NCBI GenBank assembly: GCA_951406725.2
Contig: OX597825.1
Span: 41,354,001 to 41,418,000 of the forward strand
DNA: 64,000 bases
From: Octopus vulgaris
Taxonomy: Eukaryota
Reading direction: 5' to 3'
Shown here: positions 4,030 through 58,129 of the stretch, piece after piece
How the letters are laid out: every line of letters starts with the position of its first letter
Position numbering within the stretch: position 1 is the stretch's first letter
Position numbers and translations under genes: made by a program
The notes under the pieces: generated by a model
The model's database searches: none
What the model saw: the letters and a program-made list of their open reading frames with translations, nothing else
What the model was told of the DNA's origin: nothing

Positions 4030-4580
4030 TGAGTGAAAGAGCAGTGCATGCCATCAAAGTGATACTGGGATAGAAAAATACAAAGCCCAATATACCATCA
4101 TGACTACCCATCTGCTAAGGGTACACCAGGCACATGCATCACAACCATATGTGTGTGATATATCATGATCCCAAATCAAGATAAATAGGACATGACCTTG
4201 CAGGTGGGGCTCAGAATTTTCTTCAGGTCGAGTGGCCATCCCACTCAAATGATCCCTGAATAAAGTTTGTTTAAAGATGATTAACAAAACACCCATTTTT
4301 CCAGAGGTGAATAATTCAAACCCCAAGGAGTTCCTCTCAACACAGCACTATGGTGTTCTCCCACTACTTCTGCTCACAATTAGATATGCACGTTCCATCA
4401 ACCACTAAGGGGCTGCTCAACTGGTTAAGGTCAAGTGACTGACAAGCAGATCTGTGGTATTAAGCAGAATATTTGCTGCAACCTATCTTTTATACTAAGA
4501 GAAAACATAGATGATAGCACTTTCAATCAGTTAAGATCAGAAGCTATAAGAGCCACTGCCTGGTACTGCATCAGGGCATT
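4030..4580. repeat. Probable unclassified interspersed repeat between (ATT)n tracts
   Basis: Higher-GC block sharply bounded by ATT microsatellites. No second copy in the window. Confidence 0.35.
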
Positions 4581-18769: not shown

Positions 18770-19525
18770 AGGACCCATCAGGCCAAGTGTACCAGTGGTG
18801 GTGGCATGTAAAGAACACCTTTTGAGCATTGGGCCTCACAGAGCCAAAGTGGCTGAGTTTCTTTCAGGCGTTAGGCTTCACAGAAGCAAAGTGGGTGAGT
18901 TCCTTTCAAGCTTTGGGCTTTATGGAGGCAAAGTAGCTGAGTTCCTTTCAAGTTTTGGGCTTCATGGAGGCAATAACCAAGACCATTGGCGTTATGTCAT
19001 GCTTGAGAACAAGACCCATGAAGCTAAACAAAATCACAGTCATGGCAGATACTGGCATCATGCTAATTGGCACCTGTGCTGGCGACATGCAAAGCACCCA
19101 TTACACTCTAAAGTGGTTGGTGTTAGGAAGGGTATCCAGCCATAGAAAATCTTGCTAAATCAGACTGGAGTCTGGTACAGCCTTCCAGCATACCAGCCTG
19201 GTCAAACCATCCAGCCCATGTCAGCATGGACAATGTATGCTAAATGATAATTATGATGATGATATCTGATCTGGCAGAGTTTCTACAGCTGGATGCCCTT
19301 CCTAACACCAACAACTCTGAGTGTGTAGTGGGTGCTTTTCATGAGGGCCAGTCAGGTGGTATTGGCAACAGCCATGCTCAAATGGTGTTTTTTACATTCC
19401 ATCTGCACAGGATCCAGTCCAGCAGCACTGGCAATGACCTTGCTCGAATGTTTTTTTCATGTGCCACCAGCACAAGTGCCAGTAAGGCAACGCTGGTAAC
19501 GATCACGCTCAAATGGTGCTTTTTA
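18770..19525. mobile_element. Two RTE-3'-end elements arranged tail to tail (+ to ~19263, then -)
   Basis: ggtgttaggaagggtatccagc...tgatgatgat is followed by ctacagctggatgcccttcctaacacc. Three ~45-bp internal tandem units lie at ~18820-18975. Confidence 0.7.
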
Positions 19526-20643: not shown

Positions 20644-21490
20644 TATGTGGTCTGATCAATAAATATCCGGACTGTTGCTATAGTAATGAAGCTGAAGCAC
20701 AAGAGTGAAGCTGTTTTGTTCAGATTGACCTTGAACACTGCTGTTTACAGCAGTGCTTGGTAGGAAGGTGTGTAGTGTGTAATCATCACATTGACCATGA
20801 CAGAGAATTTGAGCAGAGAATCTACATCAAATTTTGACAAAAGCTTGATGATATTTGCTCAGGGACCTACACAAAGTTTTCAACAAGTTTTTCTCATTCT
20901 CAACACAATCAAGGAGATATTGTGCAGCTGAAATCTGAGTGTCTTTTTGGTCAGCTGAAAGCAGTTTTAGCACAAACTTGGCAGACACCCATTTCATACC
21001 CAAATCTTCAGTGAGAATGGACTGAACTGAACTGTAACTAATCTGCACTTCATTTGATAACTCATTTGATGATTTCCCCTGACAACTGCACGCACATCTA
21101 TGATGTTTTTTTCAGTTCTGCTGGTTGCAGAGTGTTCATCAATATCGACATTTTGCTGCTGTCTTGGAAATGTCTGAACCACTTGTACATTTATACACTC
21201 ATGTGCAGCCCATACACTCCTCTCCATATGCTTTCTGCAACTTTGTGCAGGCCTCTGAGCAGGTATCATCATGACAGCTTTCTCCTGTCATGGTCAATGC
21301 AACAGTTGCATGCTACACACCTTCCTTCCAAGCACTGCTGTAAACAGTGGAAATGAGCTTGAATGTTAAAACTTAGTGTGCATGCATAGCAGAGTTCAAG
21401 GTTAATCTGTGTCAAGTGGCTTCACTCTGCATGCTTTAGCTTCGTTACTATAGCAACAGTTTGTATACTAATTGATCAAACCTCTTCGTG
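20644..21490 (-). mobile_element. Non-autonomous mariner derivative with long inverted termini
   Basis: 20644-20880 is the reverse complement of ~21240-21490 (tgatcaat...ctgttgctatagtaa.gaagct). Internal minus-strand ILTEDLGMKWVSAKFV. Confidence 0.85.
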
Positions 21491-23709: not shown

Positions 23710-24343
23710 GATTGACTGATCAAGGGACTTAACTCATGCCCACTTAATAAACACTTCTATTCATTATTCTGTTATCCCATAGGAAAATTGTGTAATGGAA
23801 ATTAAGAGCTATAAACGCAACACTTTTGTGGTTGGTGACTTAATGTTCTTCGTTCCTTAATTAAAATCATCCATATGGCGTTCATCTCTATTGCAAGCTC
23901 ACTGATGAGGTTATCAAAGCCCAACATATGTGATCATTCTTTCAGTCATCTTATCTTCCAGTGTTGTTCCAAATCCATTATCCTAACTTTGTTCCACAAA
24001 GATTATTGAATTCCCTTTTCCCTTCACAAATGATCAGCCATGCTGATTTTTCTGTCTCAACCTGGTTTAGTCAATTGAAAGAATCAACACATATGAAAGG
24101 CTTTGATAACCTCCTCTGAAGACCTAGTGTAAAGATGAATTCCATTTGGAATCATTAAGAAAGAAGGTACATTAAACCTACAACAATAAAAAAAGATGAT
24201 AGGTTTAAAGCTCCTAATTTCCATTACTGAATTGTCCAACAAATAAGACAATGGAATAGTAAATGCAGCATTGATTAATTGTCAAATGTTGAGTATTGTT
24301 GTTTATTTAGTGGATGTGAGTTCATTTCCTTGCTTACTCAATC
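23710..24343. mobile_element. Diverged palindromic insert (arms ~23710-23950 and ~24070-24343)
   Basis: gaggttatcaaagcc pairs with ggctttgataacctc, and gtaatggaaattaagagct with agctcctaatttccattac. CTGATGAG at 23902. Confidence 0.75.
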
Positions 24344-24723
24344 CGAACATAATTCTTCAAACTGAATGTGCAAGTGGTATCAGAAGCACAATAATATATA
24401 TGGTGTAGGCAATGAAAGGAAAACAATATCCTCACTATGGGTTTAAATAAAAGGCTCAGTTTGGAATTTAAAAGGATGGAGTGTGTGTGTGTGTATGTGT
24501 ATATATGTTGTGTGTGAGTGTGTTTATATGAGTGTGTGTGTAAATTAAAAAGGGTGGCTTATTAGCAATTACAACCTAAAGGCAAAGTTAAAAAGCAGTC
24601 ACAAAAGTGACAGAGGGTAGTGACGAGCACTGTGTTTGCTAAAAATAAAAGTTAAAACAACTCAAATGCCACAAAAGCACTGTCTTAATGACTATCAAAG
24701 GGAGGAAAGTACCCGGCATATAT

Positions 24724-24779
24724 AGTCGGATCGCAATTTCAGATTTTGATGTCGACCATCTTAATCCACATCAGCGACT
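24724..24779 (-). ncRNA. Type I hammerhead ribozyme (A9 replaced by T)
   Basis: agtcg CTGATGT ggat-taagatggtcgacatcaaa-atct GAAA TTGCGA TC cgact. Stem I is a perfect 5 bp. Confidence 0.75.
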
Positions 24780-25020
24780 CCTAATGCCTAGGGTTAGACT
24801 CAAGTTTTTTTAACTCTTATTTTTAGTAAAAGCAGTACTATTCAGTACCTTTGTCACTTTTGTGACTTCTGTTAATTTTGCCTTTTGGTTCTAATTGCTA
24901 ATAAACCACCCTTTTAAAAATATTGTTTACACTTTAACTGCTTTGAAAATCAACAAATGCTTTCAACGGTTTTTCTTATGAGACTGACAGAGGTAGTTGA
25001 GTTTAACCCTATGCATCAAG

Positions 25021-25075
25021 AGATACTGATGAGGATTAAGATGGTCTACATCAAGATCCAAAGTCGTGATCTGAT
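25021..25075 (+). ncRNA. Type I hammerhead ribozyme, second copy (GAAA decayed)
   Basis: CTGATGA ggat-taagatggtctacatcaag-atcc AAAG TCGTGA TC tgatc. Confidence 0.65.
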
Positions 25076-26471
25076 CATATGCGCTGGGGAATTACCTCCT
25101 TCTGTCAGTCATTAAGACAGTACTTTGTGGCTTTTGAGTTTTAACTTTTATTTTTAGCAAAAGTGGTGCTAGTTAGTACCTTCTGTCACTTTTGTGACCT
25201 CTCTCTCTCTCTCAACATATATATGTATATATATATACACACACACAAACATACTAACTCATATTTAAACATACATGCATTCATTTATAAATATATGTTC
25301 ACATCCAAAATATATATGGCTATGATATACAAAGATGATAAAAATCAATTTTGAACATACAGGCACACTCATAAAATTGCTCATGCACACAAAACATAGA
25401 TTCACACACATATACAAAAACACAGAAATAATCCTACATATATTTATATATATGCGTAAGTAGCAACTATGCACATCAAGATATATGCATACACATATAA
25501 TGTTCCTTATTAGTGTTTTGAACACTAGGAAATAGTGTAATAAATTGGCTATAGTCATTATTTAAATTGACTGGTGTGGAAGAAACATCTACTTTCCAGG
25601 GGAGGAATTCAAATTAAGATTAGTCTTTTGAATATATAGAATTCAGTACACTACACTACAGCAGGAAATCCTAAATAGGTTGGCATAATGCCAGATAATT
25701 TCATTAAAAGAAAATGATAATTCTTTGAGGAAATAGTTTTTCATTACATTAGGAAATTCTTCATTGCAGAAATAAAGAAAAACTATAGAGAACCTAAGAA
25801 GTAATGATACAGAGAAATAGAAAGGGAGAAAAGAGCAAGAGAAAAGAAAAGAAGACAAGAGAGAAAGAAAAAAGAAGGGAGTGAAAGGGAATTTGATGTT
25901 ATATTATTATGGTAGTACTTCAGCTGAAATCACAACTTAGCAAATCACTTGGTCACTATTGCCAGTCACTTTACCACGTATAAGTCCATATTAATTTTGT
26001 TGATGGTCTGTATTGTAGAATTTTGTTAAGCTTTCATTGACTGAGAGGTTAAAATTGACATTATAGATGCTAGTCATTAATATAACACAGATCAATATTC
26101 TGCTTCTTATCATCTTCTTCTGAGTGAGACTTTGAATCATTTGGTGGATACACAAAATTTATATGTAGAATATATGAGCAAATATGAAACAGTTATGAAT
26201 AAGAATATCAGTTTTATTGCTTGCTTCTTCTATTATCATTCTATTCACATTCGGGATGCATAATGGTCCTGTGACTTCCTTTTGTTGAATAATTCTGAGT
26301 TTGAAGAAAACATATTTTCAGTATATTAATGAATGTTCAAGTTCAGTATAGTTGTGAACTAACCAAGAATACCAGATTACATATGAAATATAAACTTCTA
26401 ACAATATTAAAACAAAATCACACAAGTACATTCAGTACAGAAATAACATATAACATGAAATAACCTATATA

Positions 26472-31194: not shown

Positions 31195-31597
31195 ACTCTT
31201 TTACTCTTTTACTTGTTTCAGTCATTTGACTGCGGCCATGCTGGAGCACCACCTTTAGTCGAGCAAATCGCCCCTGGGACTTATTCTTTGTAAGCCTAGT
31301 ACTTATTCTATCGGTCTCTTTTGCCGAACCGCTAAGTGACGGGAACGTAAACACACCAGCATTGGTTGTCAAGCAATGCTAAGGGGACAAACACAGACAC
31401 ACAAACACACACACATACACTCATAAATATATATATACATATATATACAACAGGCTTCTTTCAGTTTCCATCTACCAAATCCACTCACAAGGTTTTGGTT
31501 GGCCCGGGGCTATAGCAGAAGACACTTGCCCAAGATGCCATGCAGTGGGACTGAACCCGGAACCATGTGGTTTGTTAGGAAGCTACTTACCACACAA
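31195..31597 (-). mobile_element. SINE family B, near full length (tRNA-like head, internal microsatellite)
   Basis: Reverse complement of 45488-45895. Confidence 0.88.
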
Positions 31598-32109
31598 ATA
31601 ACATGGAAAAAAACAAATAAATAGTTACTAAGGGAGCAAAATTTCACATAAGAGCCAAGGATATTACAGCTTACTTATAAACGTAGAAATTCCAGGGTTA
31701 AGTGAAATGTTTTTGTATAACATAGATAAATTAAGAAAATGAGTCAAATGTAGGTGTTATTCAAATCTTTATACTTCCGACATATGTCTTGAAGAAAACA
31801 TTGATATTATTCAGGAAGGAATAAAATGATGTAAAACAATGCAATCATCTTGTCAGGGAAAAACAAAGAAACAAAACACATCAATAAGCCATTTTAACCA
31901 AATATGATTACCCCATATATAATGACAGAAAATTAAGAGTGGAGAAATATAGTGTGATAGATGAATGGGAATATTGCTTAAAATCGTGGAAATAGATATA
32001 TATAAAGGAAATTGAAATGTAAGAAAACAGTTAAAGGTCAAATTTTATAGATTGGTAGAAATTACTTATAGGAAATAAAGGTATGTTTTTGCCAATGTCT
32101 ACAACAATA

Positions 32110-32870
32110 AACATGTTCTTTAAAGATGTTTACAAGAGAATTCTCTGAGAACAGGTCCAACAAAGTCAATCGGCTCCAGAAAGTCAATAAGAACCATTGC
32201 AAAGGACCTCAAGGTTTCAGAATGCACCCTTGGAAGAGTTGTGCATGAGGAAATCTGGTACAAGTCGAATGTGATGTGGAGGACCTAGTTTATGCTGAAT
32301 GTCAAAAGAGAGAATGGTTTGATCCATGTAAAGTGCTTGCTAAACAAGTTAAATCACCAAGAGAAAATCCTCTGTCAAGACCAGAATGTAAACTGAAGAA
32401 ATGACAGATGCTTATGCAGAGACTTGATGGTTCTGGGAGTCATCAGCAATGAGTTAGTTGTCATGCCTCCTCATATTTTTTTTACTTAAGAGTCAATACT
32501 ACTGTCTACACAGGAATACTGGAGAAAATTGTGTGTCCCTGGATAGTCAGAGTATGCAACAGAAGATCGTACATCTTCCAACAAGACTCTGTGCCATCTC
32601 ATATGGCTAGAACAGCTCAAATGTGGATGTGAGCCAATCTCTGATTATGTTCTCACAGTCACATGGGCCCCTAGGTCACCCTAGGTCTCAATCCACTGGA
32701 CTATTATGTATGGGGCATAGTTGAGAGAGATGATAATGAAATCCACCCACCCCATAATACCATGCAATCTCTCAAGTCTGCCTTAACCAGCACTATGTCC
32801 AAAATTGATGAAGACTTTCTGATGAAGGCATGTCAGCTTTTGATCCTGTATTCAAGCAGCCATTGGATTC
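32110..32870 (+). pseudogene. Degraded Tc1/mariner-superfamily transposase (possibly maT/DD37D-like)
   Basis: YIFQQDSVPSHMA and WAPRSP..LNPLDYYVWGIVE motifs, with stops and frameshifts. Confidence 0.75.
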
Positions 32871-33044
32871 ATAGCATAGGTGTCATAAAAGGGTTCCCAA
32901 GATTATTTGTACCAATTTGTTTTCAAATACAGCGTTTTTCTTTTTGATGACCTAAGCATTCTTTTTCTAAATTCAAATAAATGACATCAGTCAGAACACT
33001 GACACATCCTATACCGCACACACACACACACACACACATATATA

Positions 33045-33428
33045 GGTACAGATATGGTTGTGTGATAAGAAGCTTGCTTCTCAACCTCATGGTTCCGGGT
33101 TCAATCCCACTGTATGGCACCTTGGGTAAATGCCTTCTACTATAGCCTCGAGTGGATTTGGTAGACGGGAACTGAAAAGAAGCCCATTGTATATATATAT
33201 ATGTATGTGTGTGTGTATGTATGTGTGTATGTATGTATATTTATGTGTGGGTGTCTGTGTTTGTCCACCCACCATTGCTTGACAACCGATGTTGGTGTGT
33301 TTATCTCCCCTAAACTTAGCAGTTTGGCAAAAGAGACTGATAGAATAAGTACAAAGAATAAGATCTGGGGTCAATTTCTTTGGCTAAAGGTGGTCTTCCA
33401 GCATGGCCACAATCAAATGACTGAAACA
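33045..33428 (+). mobile_element. SINE family B copy
   Basis: Colinear with 45488-45895. Confidence 0.85.
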
Positions 33429-41580: not shown

Positions 41581-42175
41581 TTAGGCCTTAAATGATAAGG
41601 CTGGAAAGATTTTCCAATTCTTCAAAATATATTTATACATATGCATGCAACCACTGAAAATTTCTGACCTGGAGTTCAATAGAGAGATAGAGATCTTAGA
41701 TCTGAAGAGGATCTGCAATCTTTCAGTGCAACAAAGTCTACATTTATTCAATCCATTCACATAAGGTATGAATTTCTCAATTACTTTCCGTTTACTCACA
41801 TGCGGTGTTTCATTATCTTTCAAACTCCATACATGACTTGCCAACTTAGTAGCTTTACTTTCGTCCCTATGTCGGAAGTGATTGGCATAGCAATTTTTAA
41901 ATTCACCTTGACATAATCCAATATAGGTCTCCTCCTCAGTTATACTATTATTTAGGATTGCAGCAAAGGATCCTGACCGTCGTTGGTCAAGTGGACAGGA
42001 TCCTGGGTTGCAACAGTTGTAACTGGATTCAGGTTCTTGGTATTGACCCCATGTAATGATATTCTTCATACTGGGGTAGCAGCTACAAGATAGTTTCACA
42101 GAATGCCTATTAAATATTTTCCTCTGGGAAGTGTTTGACTAAGAGTGACAGGAATCTTTTACCAATGTTAGTTTT
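41581..42175 (-). pseudogene. Penelope-like element GIY-YIG endonuclease C-terminal fragment
   Basis: KLSCSCYPSMKNII, NC..PGSCPL, YIGLCQGEFK..YANH, TKLASHVW, CRLCCTE and LLNSRSEIFSGCMH. Confidence 0.85.
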
Positions 42176-49738: not shown

Positions 49739-51599
49739 ACAATATATACATACATTGTGTGTGTGCATTTTGGTTTTTAATTTCATTGTTTTATGTATAT
49801 CAGTCAATGGACTTTAGTTATGTTCATGATTTTTCTTGAAAGGTTAAATCACACCAATACTTATCTTGAGACCAGTACTTATTCTATTAGTCGTCTTTTG
49901 GCCAAAATATCAAGCAAGAGGAATGTAAACTAAACAATACCAGCTGTCAAGTGGTGAGCAACAAATAATTTGACAAATGTAAAAACTAACACACACAACT
50001 CCTATACATATGTAACTGGATTCTGTGCAGTTTCCTATATTAAGCTCACTCACAAAATACTGGCAGGCCTTGGGTTAGCTAATGCCTTGCACAGTGTGAC
50101 AGAATACAAAATCACAATGTTTAAATGATTTTGAATTGATCTTCTTAACCACACAGTGTTGATAAGTACAATGTTGATAAGTACAATATATCAATCATTC
50201 ACAAAGTGAGGGGCTGTTAGAAGGAGAGATTAAGCGAAAGAAGGGAAGAAAGCAGTGCAAGGCTTTATACAAAGCAATTAGAGGTTAGGTCTGGTGAGAT
50301 CTACAACTCTAAGGCCCAACTGAATCGCAGGTGGCTGGAGTAATTTAATTTTGTGATATGATTGACATCATAAATATTTTCAATACAGTCCTCTTCAACA
50401 TCCACAGCACTACTTACAGAAAACTAAATAATACAATAAATAAATATTTATCAACAATTGTTATACAAATAAGCTGTATAACAGTACAGAAACAAATAGA
50501 ATGCAATGAATACATCAGACACTTCACTTATTAAGAAGATGCATGAATCACATGCATGCTGATTATAAGATAGAACACATCCAATAACTCATAAAACAAA
50601 GCATAAAATTCATTGCCACGCCATAAACTAAAATTACAAACATGCACTTCTTGCAAGAGTAACAATCTTGTGAACTTGAAAAGAAGATACAAATTAGAAA
50701 CATAACAAGACATGCAAAAATTTGAAACTCCAATATTGACCACATGAATGACACTTTCCCACAGCACTTACAACATACCGCAATCATAATGTAAAACCAA
50801 GCAAAATTTTAAAATGCCTGTAAAAAACACAAATCTCATCAACAGAATTTCTCCCTCACTTTGCCACTCTTTCTCATTCTCTTTCTCTCTCACACACTCT
50901 CCCTCATTCTATTTCTCTCTCTCCCAATTTCTCTCTCTCACACAAACACACACACACACAAATTCACAAATTCACAAAAAGAAGCCAATCCAGATTAAGT
51001 CGTAGAGGCAAATCATGTAGCAGACCACAATATTGAAATAAATAAACAAATAACATACTTTTGTAAAATAAATAAAAAATAAAATAAAACAAAATGCACA
51101 ATTAATAAAGTATAACACGGAATATTCTAATATTGGCAATGATGTCAAAAATAATGCCATTGTCTCAGATCAACAAAGTAAGAAGAACACAAACCAACGT
51201 CATCCTCTTCCTTCTGAGGATGAGACCATGAATGTGTAGAAGCAGTGATGACAGATTTCTTGGACAAGCAAATTCTACCGTATGCTACAGAAAGTGCAGT
51301 AGTTAATAAAAATGAATTGTCAAATGCAATAGCTTTGTTTTATGACATCAGACTCTTTATGGAAATTCATCTCAATATCAAACAGATACAGCAATATACA
51401 TAATACAAGATATTACTAATATAACTAATATATTCATGCCTATATGTATTCTGATTTTTATGTTTTATTTTTGTATTTTTCACACTTCTCTAATTTTACA
51501 ATGTTACATATTACAAGAAAGTGCTTTTCTACTTTCTGCAATGCTTAGGTTTATATAGCAGCACTATTAACTGACAGTTATGTTTCACAGTAGATAACT

Positions 51600-52965
51600 G
51601 TAGTGGAATACTTGAATTTGTCCTTTAAGTATTTTCTAGGATGCTCCAGCAAGCTGTATCTTTCACTCCACTTAAAGGAAGAAATATTTATTCATCTAGA
51701 CCAATACATAGATAACCTTTACAAATTTCCACTGAGGCATAATAGAAGTGCCAGACCAAATATTACCAAATCAGAGAAGTTTATACTTAAACATCTCCAA
51801 ACTGATAACACAACAGTCACCAAACTAGCAGACAAAGTGGTTGCCATTGTCATAATGGAAGCCAAATATTACCAGGATTTAGCTGAGAATAAATCGAAGG
51901 ATACAGCATTTTACAGTGTGATATAGATCCCTGCATCATGAAAAAGCTCAATAGCTTGGTTTCAGAATACATCTCCCTTACTATGAGTGAAAGAGATAGC
52001 ATTTTACCAATTTTGAACCTAAAGTAAGCAAATTTTATGGCATGCCAAAAATATATATAAGTGATGGTAATTAAAAATGACATCACTATCATCACTGATA
52101 TGTATTATAAAGACACAGATATTCAACAGTGCCTGAACTTTAACTCATGCCATCCAATACATACAAAATGGAATATCCAATAATGTCTAGCCAGAATAAT
52201 TTTTACCATTGTTGACAATGGAGATATTAGAGACAGATGTCTCACAGAATGTAGGATTTCTACTCAAACGAAATCACCTACTCCTACTTATTGAAAATGG
52301 TACAATGTGTGCTAAACAAATACCTACAGAACAACTTAGAGCAAACCAAGAAAGAGGAATGCAAAAACAAAACATCATACCATTTATAGTGACACAAAAC
52401 CCACATCACCAAAATAACTTTAACATCAACAAATTAAATTAGCCTATCATTGGTCAAAGTAACAAACTAAAACCTATAATTACTGATCAAATACTGATTC
52501 AAATTAAAAGACAACCAAAACATTTGAATCAATTATTAAAGAAGGCAAAATTTGACTCAAACAACAATGATAAAACATACATAGTATCCAAATGCACTGA
52601 CAATCAATATGGTACATGTGAGTTCAAGCATGCTAGTCAATATATCCATCCAAAAACCAGAAGAATATTTACAAAAGCAAATATGAACTGTAAAAGCAGA
52701 AAATTAATCTGCTGCATCAAACTCCTGAATTTTGAAGAGATATATATTGACCAGACAGGAAAGTGATTATCAGAACGCTCATGAGTACATCAACAGCAAA
52801 TTAGGGTCCCTGATGTTTGCCAGATTCTATTAAGCAGTCATTTAGGAATAGGTATCCAAAAATGTTTATAATATTCTCATTTTTCAAAATGTACAACTCA
52901 AGTGAAGATGAAAGAACAGTGAGTGAAATAAATTTTATAGAGAAATTCAAACCCATTTACATGGA
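51600..52965 (+). pseudogene. Degraded, internally deleted Penelope-like element (RT N-terminus, thumb and GIY-YIG)
   Basis: NITKSE...KLADKVVAIVIM, FYGMPKIY, IPFIVTQNP and NMNCKSRKLICCI...YIDQTG. Confidence 0.85.
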
Positions 52966-53044
52966 CAATAATAATAATGATGTTAATAGTAATAATAGTA
53001 ATAATTAATGCTAGGAAGTTTAGCAGTAATATTAAATTCATTTA

Positions 53045-53350
53045 AGGCAGGAATACTAGCTCAATGGTTAGAACATTGAGCTCACAATCATGAAGTAGTG
53101 AGTTTGATTCCCAGACCAGGCTGTGTGTTGTGTTCTTGCAAGATACTTCATTTCATGTTGCTTCAGTTCATTCCGCTGTAGAAATGAGTTGTAACATCAA
53201 TGGTACCAAGCTGTATCAGCCTCTTTCTTTTCCTTGTTTAACATCAGAGGTGTAGAGAGAGGAGGCTGATATGCATGAGTGACTGCTGGTCTTCCATAAC
53301 CAATTTTGCCCCAGAGGGGAACTTTTTAGGTACAATCCCAAGGTTCTTAG
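53045..53350 (+). mobile_element. tRNA-derived SINE (degenerate)
   Basis: tagctcaatggttaga...gagtttgattcccagacc has A and B boxes. The head resembles family C. Confidence 0.65.
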
Positions 53351-53886
53351 TATCGAGTGATTTTCAACATTTTAATATCACTGAATCCTTTATAGAAGAT
53401 CTTAACTAAAATGTATTTGGGAATAAGCACTGTCAATGTCCATTATGTTGGCATGTTCACCAAGTCATACTGGATAAGCTGAATGTTGATTGGTTGAAAT
53501 GTTTTTTCAAATAAGATAATGTCAATGCTACTTGTGTCAGCAGAGCTAACCAGGCCATGATATCTAAGCCACACACTGATTGGTTAAAGTAATGTTTGTA
53601 AAATACGGCTTGCTGGAATCTATTGGAAAGCATTTAAAGGACAAATTCAAGCAACTCACAGCAGTTATCAGTTGTGAAACATAACTGTCAGTTATTGATT
53701 GCAGAGAGTATAAAAGTAGTTGTATGATCATAAAATGCAACATTATAAAAATGTGAAACATCGTCGTTTAACGTAAACTAAAACGTAAAAATCTGACTAT
53801 GTTGTAATTTCATTGATTTAATATATATTAATTAGAAAAAATGAATAGATATGACTTTTCTGATAATTTTCCCACATTAATAATTA

Positions 53887-54087: not shown

Positions 54088-54132
54088 CACATGCCGATGA
54101 TGGGTCAATACCCAGAAACTCGAGTCCGTGTG
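54088..54132 (+). ncRNA. Minimal type I hammerhead ribozyme (U4 replaced by C)
   Basis: cacatg CCGATGA tgggt-caat-accca GAAA C-TCGA-G TC cgtgtg. All three stems pair, stem III is palindromic, and the cleavage triplet is GUC. Confidence 0.8.
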
Positions 54133-54613: not shown

Positions 54614-54856
54614 GAAGGTTTGGAGATGATGTACAGGTATTATATATTAGAAAAATTGAGGTAATCAGATCAGATGGTTCATATTTGTAGATATTTATTT
54701 ATATATTACATTTTTTACATATATATCATATCATTCGGATTAGCGCTTGCTCCCATTCTAGTGGGTTTTCAAATCAAATCAGTTGTGGGTAGTTTGAACC
54801 TTTTTATAGTTTCGTAGTAGTGGGTGAGGAGGAAGTGAGACAGAGAGAAAATATGT

Positions 54857-54938
<82 letters not shown>

Positions 54939-55152
54939 ATTTATATCTGAGAGTGAAGAAGTGTTATTTCCGTTGGTCTGCTGGACCCCCTGTGGTTTTA
55001 TAAGAACTTTGGCTGTCCATTTCAATGTCACTGAGTGTGTGTTGTGCATAGGTTGGCCTGGCAAATGTCATTTGGGGTCACACTTTCTATGATCATTCTG
55101 TGGAGGTGTGTGTGTGTGTGTGTGTGTCTCTGTGTGTCTGTGTGTGTTTTTT

Positions 55153-55208
<56 letters not shown>

Positions 55209-55840
55209 GAGAAGGGGAGAGAGACAAAAAGAGAAAAGGGAAAATAAAAATAATAATAATAAAAATAAAAAATTAAAAAATTAAAAAAATAAAATAAAAT
55301 AAAAACAAAAAATAAAAAATAAAATAAAAAAATATAAAGAATAAATAAAAATATAAAGAATAAAAAATAAAAAAATAAAAATAAAAATAAAAATAAAAAT
55401 AAGGGAGGAAGTGGAGAAGAAAAAATATTTTTGTGTGTTGATATTTATACCAACACATATATATACACACACACAGACTTATACATAAAATATTTGAAAA
55501 AACCTTTTTATCGGTTCAAAATGAACAACCAAATTATACCATCTTGAAAGTTGTATGTCATAGGAAAGTTAAAATTAAAGTGACAATTAAAGGGTAAAGA
55601 TGGAAGTGAATTATAAAGATAATAATATAATATGATACACACACACACACCTCCACAGAATGATCATAGAAAGTGTGACCCCAAATGACATTTGCCAGGC
55701 CAACCTATGCACAACACACACTCAGTGACATTGAAATGGACAGCCAAAGTTCTTATAAAACCACAGGGGGTCCAGCAGACCAACGGAAATAACACTTCTT
55801 CACTCTCAGATATAAATGCGCACACACACACACACACACA

Positions 55841-55909
<69 letters not shown>

Positions 55910-56115
55910 CACACATATTTTTCTCTCTGTCTCACTTCCTCCTCACCCACTACTACGAAACTATAAAAAGGTTCAAACTACCCACAACTGATTTGATTTG
56001 AAAACCCACTAGAATGGGAGCAAGCGCTAATCCGAATGATATGATATATATGTAAAAAATGTAATATATAAATAAATATCTACAAATATGAACCATCTGA
56101 TCTGATTACCTCAAT

Positions 56116-56129
<14 letters not shown>
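54611..56129. mobile_element. Young long inverted-repeat insert (arms ~54641-55119 and ~55637-56129, ~520-bp spacer)
   Basis: Arms are essentially identical apart from the (TG)n tract and its margins. (TA)n on both flanks and a ~30-nt left extension. Confidence 0.93.
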
Positions 56130-56147
<18 letters not shown>

Positions 56148-56727
56148 CATAAGTTACATCTATAGGGTGGTGAATATTATTCGTTATAAATATCACCACC
56201 AGTGGCCTAGCATGTATAAATAGTCAATAGACAACATATTCATATTTTAAAATAGAAAATTACTTTTTAACAGGTAATTTTTACATGCTAGAAATAGCAG
56301 CCAACACGGCCAAAACCACAATTTAATAGCACATTTCAAAGTAAACGAAAAATTAAAAAATTTACCTCGTTATTTAACGGTTATACCATGGTTTTGAATT
56401 TCTCCAGCAAACAATATTATTCGCCATCCTTTAATAGGTAATATAGCAAAACAATATTATCCACCAGGCGAATTCTCATCAGTAACCGGCCTCAACAACT
56501 AACTTATAATTCAGAGACAAGATAACACGTGTCCCATCATTATATGTTATAATTTTTCAAAATACTGCCTGTGTTGTCTACTATTTGTAGCATGTAAAAT
56601 TACCTGTTAAAGGGTAATTTTCTATTTTAAAATATGAATATGTTGTCTATTGACTATTTATACATGCTAGGCCACTGGTGGTGATATTTATAACGAATAT
56701 TCGCCACCCTATAGATGTAACTTATGA
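56148..56727. repeat. Inverted repeat (~160-bp arms, 56148-56308 and 56568-56727) enclosing a hammerhead
   Basis: cataagttacatctatagggtgg... is matched by ...ccaccctatagatgtaacttatg with few mismatches. Confidence 0.9.
56378..56488 (-). ncRNA. Type I hammerhead with a long stem II (G12 replaced by A)
   Basis: cggtta CTGATGA gaatt...aattc AAAA CCATGG TA taaccg. Perfect 6-bp stem I, palindromic stem III, GUA site. Confidence 0.78.
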
Positions 56728-56765
56728 ATATGTTCTTAGCATTCTCGAAGATTCAGCTCGGCATT

Positions 56766-57780
56766 TTATTTATTGCTGATTGTATATGCGCCTGCACGCA
56801 GTATTTCCTTTAATTTGGGGTCCTTATGAAGTATTGGTAAATTCTGGGTGATGATGGTGAAGGCTTCTTTGTTTCTGGGGTTGCATGTGGATATGTAAGG
56901 CAGTATTTTTGGAGAAGGTGTGTTGTTGTGTTGAACTTTTCTCAAAGTTTCTATGTCTATTTCTGTTGCACGTCTGATCCCATCCTCTATGAGTTGAACT
57001 AGGTAGTGTCTGTCAATTAGGGTGTTTTTGAGTTCTTGTAGTCTAAAGTTCCTGGTATTTTGTTCTGACACTATTGTGCATATCCTTCTTGCAAGGTTGA
57101 AAGGGATGTTTGTTTTAGTGTGTCTTGGGTGGCATGAATCAAAAAGTAGGTATTGTTTGGTGTCTGTGGCTTTGTAAAATATGTCTGTTTCTATTTTTAG
57201 GTTAATTTTCTTAATCAGTATATCTAAGAATGGAAGCTCCTTTTGGTTGTACACCATTGTGAACTGTATATTTGGGTTTATGCTGTTCAATAGGTTTTTG
57301 AATTTTAGGAGTTTGTGTTTTCATTCCAGAGTATAAAACAGTCGTCCAAGAATCTTTTCCAATTCTCTTTTATGTATTGAGAAAGGGGTTTCCAAAGGTC
57401 GATAAAGATTCCTGGTATATAACTATTTCCAGGTAGCCCATTGTTAGGTTCGCAATGACTGGTGCTGCCCTTGTACCCATAGCAATTCCGGATTTTTGAC
57501 GGTAAAACGTATTGTCAAACACGAAGTGATTATTTTGTAGGATGAATTCAACCGATTTAGTAATGAATTTTTTACTGATTCTTTTTGGTATTTCTTCCGG
57601 AAATTGGTCCAGCCAGAACTGTATTGCCTCTAGTCCATAATTATGAGGTATACTGGTATATAAATTAACTACATCAAATGAAACCATGATTGTTTCTTCC
57701 TTGACTTTTTTGGGAAGGTGGTTTAACATATCCAAGTCATCTCTGATATGACTATCGATGTGTTTGAGGAAGGGTTTCAG
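56766..57780 (-). pseudogene. Penelope-like element reverse transcriptase (frameshifted, truncated before the endonuclease)
   Basis: SFDVVNLYTSIP, QKSGIAMGT, WKRFLDDCF (frame between the two ORFs), LPFLDI and FYKATDTKQYLLFDSCHP. Confidence 0.95.
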
Positions 57781-58129
57781 AGAGAGAGAGATAAATAGGT
57801 AGGTACTTAGATATGCATACATGTGCACATACATATCAACTTTTGGGCATCATGTATATACACTTTAAATGAGTACATGACACTACCAAACCTACAGAAA
57901 GCTTAAATATGTCTGTCATTCTCATGAGTCACGATGGTGACAATCTTCATCTCACTCTGATATATACTGTATTTTTGGCACAACAAATCTCTCAAGACAT
58001 TTTATCTCAGACAATTCCACAGATTCATGCCTTCTCATAGTGTATATGCATTTAGCAGGAAACACAAACAGTGATTTTAATTTCATGTTGTTTTAGATAC
58101 ACTAAATTTTTACCTGCACACACACATAT

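Follow-up and report, generated by a model that had tools for sequence, protein, structure and literature searches.

A remnant of a Penelope-like element (PLE) reverse transcriptase (RT), found in a 64-kb stretch of Octopus vulgaris DNA (the window), abuts about 1.5 copies of a 492-nt hammerhead ribozyme unit. We propose, with a probability of roughly 0.55, that the hairpin beside the RT arose by two-ended, Penelope-type priming on this unit and that the RT sequence is likely the DNA into which the unit inserted.

Anatomy of the RT remnant and its neighboring hairpin

Read along the minus strand, the locus runs from the RT remnant through an inverted segment (tail, arm) and a direct segment (spacer, hammerhead, spacer, arm) to a (TA)n tract, with the following features:

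56803..57780, minus strand: PLE RT remnant from the core motifs to the end of the thumb, doubly truncated and frameshifted (RVT_1, tblastn, protein P0001, loose contig ends)
56803..56806, no strand assigned: 4-nt microhomology at the junction of RT family and module (family contigs reach down to 56803, the module 9-mer up to 56806)
56727..56806, plus strand: the unit's tail in inverted orientation, 71 nt followed by 9 nt that overlap where the direct segment begins (9-mer, opposite-strand joints)
56571..56726, plus strand: inverted copy of the unit's 3' arm, the upstream hairpin arm (93.3% to the direct arm)
56489..56568, minus strand: beginning of the direct segment, lying upstream of the hammerhead (fold-back junction at 56568-56571)
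56378..56488, minus strand: type I hammerhead; stem III is palindromic (3 bp), the stem II domain 80 nt long (motif scan, shuffles, constrained fold)
56308..56377, minus strand: spacer from hammerhead to direct arm (sequence; covered by related contigs in all four runs)
56148..56307, minus strand: direct copy of the unit's 3' arm, the downstream hairpin arm, with no tail (repeat alignment)
56123..56147, no strand assigned: (TA)n microsatellite, the likely insertion target ((AT)n detected at 56123-56151; (TA)n preference of PLEs, bioRxiv 10.1101/2021.04.23.441226)

The inverted repeat (56143-56307 against 56571-56731) extends over 165 columns at 93.3% complementarity, and the hairpin module folds with a z-score of -26 relative to 20 shuffles, bearing out the hairpin of about 160 bp described in the original prediction. 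The arms differ from one another at several places, indels included, and constitute the sole non-microsatellite match of the module inside the window. Between them lie 263 nt that contain the hammerhead and no open reading frame (ORF). Both outer ends of the module map to the 3' region of the unit, 80 nt apart, one with the tail and one without it. The downstream end coincides with the (TA)n tract, as predicted, and the upstream (RT-side) end sits in an AT-rich site with no TA at the boundary. The RT had been described as joined directly to the hairpin; the two are indeed adjacent, but 71 nt belonging to the module (56727-56797) intervene. These are followed by a 9-mer at 56798-56806 on the plus strand that is identical to 56568-56560 on the minus strand, with which the direct segment begins. 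The 4-nt microhomology with the RT family is the overlap read off the contig alignment and the position of this 9-mer.

The window as a whole is AT-rich (GC 0.35), with many microsatellites and retroelement remnants. A near-perfect inverted duplication (54641-55119 and 55637-56129; arms of ~490 nt at 96.6%, 517-nt spacer) ends at the module's (TA)n; its arms differ mostly in microsatellite length, and it represents either a recent rearrangement or an assembly fold-back. A second fold-back between microsatellites, at 24545-25198, has arms 80-84% alike, a hammerhead-like motif at 24774 (minus strand) and a decayed inverted copy of that motif near 25030, and is unlike the module at 56 kb. Inverted repeat pairs of 68-399 nt and 71-85% identity also occur at 19086-19343, 20649-21482, 23782-24237 and 31214-33428, in none of which did a motif scan find a hammerhead.

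The RT remnant is a dead copy of an endonuclease-bearing family

Evidence on the family comes from protein searches and from contigs of four public runs (X1, X2, X9 and X12) aligned to 56308-57790; each run contains less than half of the stretch's words and may derive from other individuals or species, and X12 is taken as RNA by guess only. Traced by tblastn of relatives, the RT remnant spans three frames on the minus strand from 57780 to 56803, and contig comparison explains the frame changes by indels at 57313 and 57384. Its RVT_1 match (E 4.7e-5) is below Pfam's cut-off. The closest named RT relatives, from Argonauta hians and Octopus bimaculoides, are 57-65% identical, and protein P0001 shares 145 of 153 residues (95%) with the remnant up to ...KLKEIL. 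The predicted loss of PLE similarity after KDPKLKEIL, with no GIY-YIG following, is confirmed both by this end point and by the relatives, whose protein similarity stops at 56799. A tblastn search with 120 relatives found no linker or GIY-YIG in 56100-56800 (five weak matches, best E 2.0), and an arm translation, 'YPLTGNFTC', was rejected as an endonuclease linker, as tblastn finds nothing there. The 10 module-derived residues after the break occur in none of the 240 relatives listed, a weak test in that the near-length set is at most 65% identical throughout, and one 6-of-10 match lies elsewhere in P0012. At the other end, a loose contig end at 57780 in run X9 extends the family ORF upstream, which indicates that the remnant is 5'-truncated. 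Searches with the RT alignment returned no relative in viral contigs and one distant locus in genome contigs.

Whether the full-length family has an endonuclease had been left as a question, and the answer is yes. Past the break, P0001 continues with a CxxxxCxxC linker and then a GIY-YIG core, and P0002 likewise carries a Cys linker and a GIY-YIG core; the Pfam GIY-YIG match in P0002 (E 6e-4) is below the cut-off, and none is called in P0001. Loose contig ends at 56803 appear in all four runs (32, 21, 11 and 6 contigs; best 24 of 747 seen) and encode the same continuation as P0001. Amongst the best 120 of 190 longer relatives, a set chosen for length, 118 reach the break, 114 carry the Cys motif and 98 the GIY-YIG core; amongst the best 120 of 136 near-length relatives, all at most 65% identical, the corresponding counts are 52, 18 and 9. 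The family thus has the PLE-type RT core and thumb together with a CX2-5CxxC linker plus a C-terminal GIY-YIG, as seen in the P0001 and P0002 sequences, the motif counts and the loose ends. The window copy has no intact ORF with endonuclease, given the break at 56803, the frameshifts and the 5' truncation at 57780. The remnant is therefore a dead, doubly truncated copy of an endonuclease-bearing PLE and not a member of an endonuclease-less clade.

Neptune/Nematis is the likely label for this family, taken from the linker motif rather than from a tree; the available text of Craig et al. (bioRxiv 10.1101/2021.04.23.441226) describes the motif on which it is based. Like PLEs of that type, the family has the RT and thumb motifs, the Cys linker and the GIY-YIG core (P0001, P0002), whereas the window copy is frameshifted and without N-terminus, linker or endonuclease.

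Other PLE-like sequence is present in the window. An older, second PLE remnant at 51568-53694 (plus strand) retains linker and GIY-YIG remnants, is 33-46% identical to P0001 and is bracketed by a 98-nt inverted repeat; near it, at 54094, lies a minimal hammerhead-like motif whose core has one mismatch. A frame of 185 residues at 41581-42138 (minus strand) has no relevant Pfam match, and by eye we take its motifs to resemble the endonuclease end of another PLE clade.

A hammerhead with a long stem II

The hammerhead predicted at 56378-56488, on the same strand as the RT, was recovered by the motif scan. Stem I pairs 56488-56483 with 56383-56378 (6 bp), CUGAUGA occupies 56482-56476, the base of stem II pairs 56475-56471 with 56400-56396, and stem III covers 56391-56386. 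A comparable motif arose in none of 5000 module shuffles and none of 30 window shuffles, and the fold constrained to the hammerhead reaches -28.8 kcal/mol, against -31.5 kcal/mol with no constraint. Rfam yielded no window match at gathering level, and two narrower scans that admitted E values up to 10 returned no hammerhead family, plausibly due to the long stem II. A 26-nt hammerhead motif had no match in metagenome contigs, nor did a 22-nt tail motif in viral contigs.

The G of the core GAAA is required for hammerhead activity. The window copy reads AAAA, with A at 56395, where G accounts for 87-100% of contig depth in all four runs; since the read majority has G where this copy has A, the core of the hammerhead family appears intact, and the ribozyme of the window copy is, judged by sequence, probably inactive. 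Short repeats had been noted in the stem II insert and are present (a 12-mer at 56409 and 56449, a 9-mer at 56418 and 56698), although they seem partly peculiar to this copy because one copy of each spans a read-majority difference (56412, 56422). Substituting read-majority letters into the predicted stem II brought no consistent gain, with two of five paired positions improved and three broken.

The hairpin is built from a 492-nt head-to-tail unit

Related contigs link the two ends of the module to each other. Four of the best 15 of 39 joints connect the tail, on opposite strands, with the start of the direct segment (56565-56800, 56562-56801, 56522-56801 and 56562-56761; five contigs, runs X1 and X2). 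The joint 56565-56800 is an exact head-to-tail join with six shared letters, as the 9-mer predicts, and each such joint comes from one contig per run at 85% likeness. Because the tail rejoins the start of the direct segment in this way, we read the unit as closed, running from spacer through hammerhead, spacer, arm and tail back to spacer over 492 nt. By this reading the window holds approximately 1.5 units, the first half being inverted. The module is non-coding with a GC content of 0.32, and the unit yielded no trace of coding sequence to tblastn of PLE relatives, be it the beginning or the end of a PLE ORF. No contig piece among those listed carries two hammerheads, and the window has no tandem array.

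Three of the four listed pieces over the fold-back (from the best 32 of 6886 pieces) leave the window sequence there: the matches of records 1, 9 and 25 end at 56563, 56561 and 56565, leaving 16, 83 and 46 letters over (runs X1, X12 and X9), and the fourth piece ends earlier. The hairpin would result from partial inversion of a direct 1.5-mer rather than being a fixed module. A same-strand joint, 56511-56673, is seen in three of the four runs and represents another arm-to-spacer join, produced either by a fold-back with other breakpoints or by a deletion copy. The junction between RT and hairpin is bridged by none of the best 32 of 6886 pieces, and this test of recurrence leans toward adjacency.

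Depth varied strongly along the locus. Summed depth in the hammerhead bins was ~1-5% of that of the RT in the DNA runs, contig depth being no measure of copy number, and the arm core (56608-56707) had ~5 to 40 times the summed depth of neighboring unit parts across the four runs and may be common to a more abundant repeat. Compared with 81 related loci, the module gave a best E of 0.14; a 48-nt arm stretch resembling RT-coding DNA of two of them, L004 and L066 (E 0.49), was treated as chance. Three module motifs had no occurrence in the supplement text of PMC8557442. An octopus repeat library may already contain the unit as an unclassified or MITE family.

A two-primer model for the fold-back

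Directly read from the data are the anatomy, the endonuclease of the family, the head-to-tail joint in related contigs and the inversion; the further steps of our preferred reading are inferred and would run as follows. The 492-nt unit would be transcribed as a multimer or circle, like non-LTR retrozymes. A PLE protein would nick two places, the (TA)n tract and an AT-rich site that lies within or next to an old PLE copy. One 3' end would then copy the arm, hammerhead and spacer of the unit (421 nt), stopping where the second primer started, while the other would copy 236 nt (tail and arm), starting 80 nt further round. Because the longer cDNA stops within 9 nt of the start of the shorter, both may have been primed on one circular or multimeric RNA. 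The two cDNAs (421 and 236 nt) would be joined head to head, and the endonuclease half of the old PLE copy would be lost at insertion or by later rearrangement, for which the near-perfect 1.5-kb inverted duplication ending at the same (TA)n is a possible candidate. The ribozyme core would have mutated afterwards. In this model the RT sequence occupies the position of target DNA and is linked to the unit by the 4 nt (56803-56806) that match either side.

A comparable geometry is known from L1 twin priming, where 5' inversions place the inverted 5' part of the template next to the stop of the 3' part and duplicate a short stretch at the point of inversion. The module inversion likewise starts beside the direct stop with a short duplication. 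It differs from L1 in having no poly(A) and no target-site duplication that we could see, and in that the template here contains the arm twice, such that inversion yields a hairpin.

Parallels are also found among PLEs. In the available text of the sources, PLE insertions have an inverted, 5'-truncated copy beside the 5' end, carry a one-sided tail and use (TA)n targets (bioRxiv 10.1101/2021.04.23.441226; PMC3846280), the (TA)n preference being described for PLEs with a linker Zn finger (bioRxiv 10.1101/2021.04.23.441226). PLE protein, when purified, cleaves and extends both strands with a preference for ATT, and the tail is defined by two closely spaced internal sites where reverse transcription begins (both from the available text of PMC11167929). 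Non-autonomous PLEs with head-to-tail insertions (PMC8557442), and truncated PLEs as a source of dispersed and opposite-strand hammerheads (PMC4209133), are also described in the text available. Two fold-back features of these insertions are present in the module, where an inverted, truncated 3'-end copy lies beside the direct 5' end and the target is (TA)n or AT-rich. As in the PLE fold-back units of PMC3846280, PMC8557442 and PMC11167929, so far as their available text describes them, the inverted copy adjoins the 5' end of a truncated direct copy, the tail is one-sided, insertion is at (TA)n and the hammerhead lies inside the repeat unit; in contrast to them, no ORF lies between the repeats here, the tail is 71-80 rather than 30-40 nt, and the RT remnant is outside the inverted unit, at its tail end. 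Inverted repeats of at least 40 nt occur in three of the 81 related loci. One of these loci (L060) is a 5'-truncated PLE with a 338-nt, 99.7% inverted 3'-end copy (2519-2856 and 4051-4388) whose repeat carries a hammerhead-like motif, and its ORF lies between the inverted repeats in the ordinary PLE layout.

Several observations count against the two-primer model. The tail is longer than the published 30-40 nt, and the depth excess of the arm core is left unexplained. An additional deletion must be assumed, though none was observed, because the remainder of the target PLE is missing from the right flank. Finally, the sense-strand A-to-G excess described below, which extends over both the RT and hammerhead parts, would fit a common RNA, though the excess is weak in full tallies.

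Alternative origins

The original prediction offered, as one possibility, a template switch from PLE mRNA to a non-autonomous RNA. The non-autonomous nature of the unit is supported by the lack of a coding remnant and by the head-to-tail joints, but a one-step switch from RNA to RNA is excluded and two are needed, because it is the antisense part of the unit that abuts the RT. A related reading, which we consider unlikely, is chimeric co-integration, in which a PLE RT, in a single event, copied the unit, folded back on the cDNA to produce the inverted arm and tail and then, by way of the 4-nt microhomology, moved onto its own mRNA, copying ~1 kb of RT before stopping, such that the RT family would be the mobilizing partner of the unit. 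Co-integration would account for the missing endonuclease half with no deletion, for the hammerhead and RT lying on one strand and for the microhomology at 56803-56806. The need for two switches weighs against it, as does the inverted piece starting within 9 nt of the direct stop, for which a second primer on the same RNA would be simpler.

Nucleotide differences bear on co-integration in both directions. On the sense strand, A-to-G changes outnumber T-to-C by 16 to 1 among 38 majority-run differences (best 40 of 162; p = 0.0013 after base composition), with 10 in the RT and 6 in the unit, which would fit passage of both parts through one edited RNA. In full tallies of the four runs, the excess is 0.98, 1.49, 2.4 and 2.09-fold, and in run X1 it is gone. 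ADAR has a neighbor-base preference, which these sites do not display: the 5' neighbor is G at 2 of 16 sites, against 87 of 559 in the background, and the 3' neighbor is G at 2 of 16. With this unsupportive context and a weak excess in full tallies, we rejected an ADAR footprint; alternatively, the A-to-G excess could come from host transcription on that strand.

Elements of both readings can be combined, and in a quite unlikely history a Neptune-type Penelope enzyme would have used two primers on one circle to reverse-transcribe a hammerhead RNA of 492 nt, unusual for its long stem II, and then continued onto the element's own mRNA. If true, the locus would identify which autonomous element serves an animal retrozyme-like RNA and reveal the way such circles integrate.

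The other possibility offered at the outset was a deleted PLE whose pseudo-LTR (pLTR) is a long hairpin. The first half of this claim holds in that the RT is a deleted copy of an endonuclease-bearing family, but the reading of the hairpin as a pLTR in its own right is not supported, as it derives from a partly inverted 1.5-mer. We regard as improbable the variant in which the unit is this PLE family's own pLTR, the direct segment is the element's 3' terminal repeat, an inverted pLTR end replaced the linker and endonuclease, and the joints stem from solo-pLTR tandems. A sense-strand hammerhead does lie 75-575 nt after the endonuclease in 14 of the 81 related PLE loci, Xenopus retrozymes are described as resembling pLTRs in the available text of bioRxiv 10.64898/2026.07.22.740005, and the runs contain the arm core in abundance. 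Yet the listed contigs that leave upstream of the hammerhead enter the tail rather than coding sequence, the unit contains no PLE ORF end or start, and stem II measures 3-16 nt in the 14 related hammerheads as against 80 nt here. The hammerhead's summed depth, far below that of the 3' part of the RT, where 5'-truncated families should peak, is a further, weak hint against it.

It is very improbable that the hairpin is a fixed, non-autonomous MITE-like element with 160-bp terminal inverted repeats and a TA target that neighbors the PLE remnant by chance. Its long arms, 93% alike and ending at (TA)n, and an arm core that is the deepest part of the module would suit such an element, but the upstream arm extends 80 nt further, into sequence found joined to the hammerhead segment in other contigs, the window's arm-spacer join is absent in three of the four listed pieces, and the upstream boundary has no TA. 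An assembly artefact, whether a fold-back read or collapsed repeats, is scarcely credible even with a near-perfect 1.5-kb inverted duplication starting just behind the (TA)n and no listed contig spanning the whole stretch, since an artefact would give near-identical arms, whereas these arms differ, indels included, and copy-specific decay is found in both parts.

Relation to retrozymes and implications

By sequence, the unit looks like a non-LTR retrozyme, and we do not claim membership. In the available text of PMC7229834 and bioRxiv 10.64898/2026.07.22.740005, metazoan non-LTR retrozymes are likewise non-coding, AT-rich units that carry a single type I hammerhead whose stem III is short and palindromic; their ends join head-to-tail, they co-exist with PLEs, and molluscan examples are described. 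Accordingly placed beside them, the unit has a type I hammerhead (GAAA intact in the read majority), is non-coding and has a GC content below 45%; at 492 nt it lies outside the 150-450 bp given in the available text of PMC7229834, and its stem II domain of 80 nt also sets it apart. Another difference is that the copy here forms an inverted 1.5-mer rather than a tandem array, and the unit is known from sequence alone. Mobilization of animal retrozymes by PLEs has been proposed, and not demonstrated, according to the available text of the same two sources. Ribozymes go unmentioned in the available main text of the Octopus vulgaris repeat annotation (PMC13282606), and our partial library of papers, which leaves absence unproven, yielded none on this unit or on fold-back-inserted retrozymes.

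The physical link between hairpin, hammerhead and PLE RT that the original prediction emphasized is real as adjacency but probably incidental to one locus, so no new endonuclease-less element is defined. The locus is now most likely inert, and if transcribed it would give long double-stranded RNA. It is largely explained by known PLE biology, and what stays of interest is a 492-nt hammerhead unit, long in stem II, whose integration seems to have been the work of PLE machinery. For annotation, hairpins of this kind are mistakable for MITEs and missed by Rfam. A head-to-tail hammerhead unit bearing a PLE insertion signature provides circumstantial support for PLE-mobilized retrozymes and makes a countable prediction, namely that genome-wide the outer ends of such fold-backs would cluster at two fixed points of the unit.
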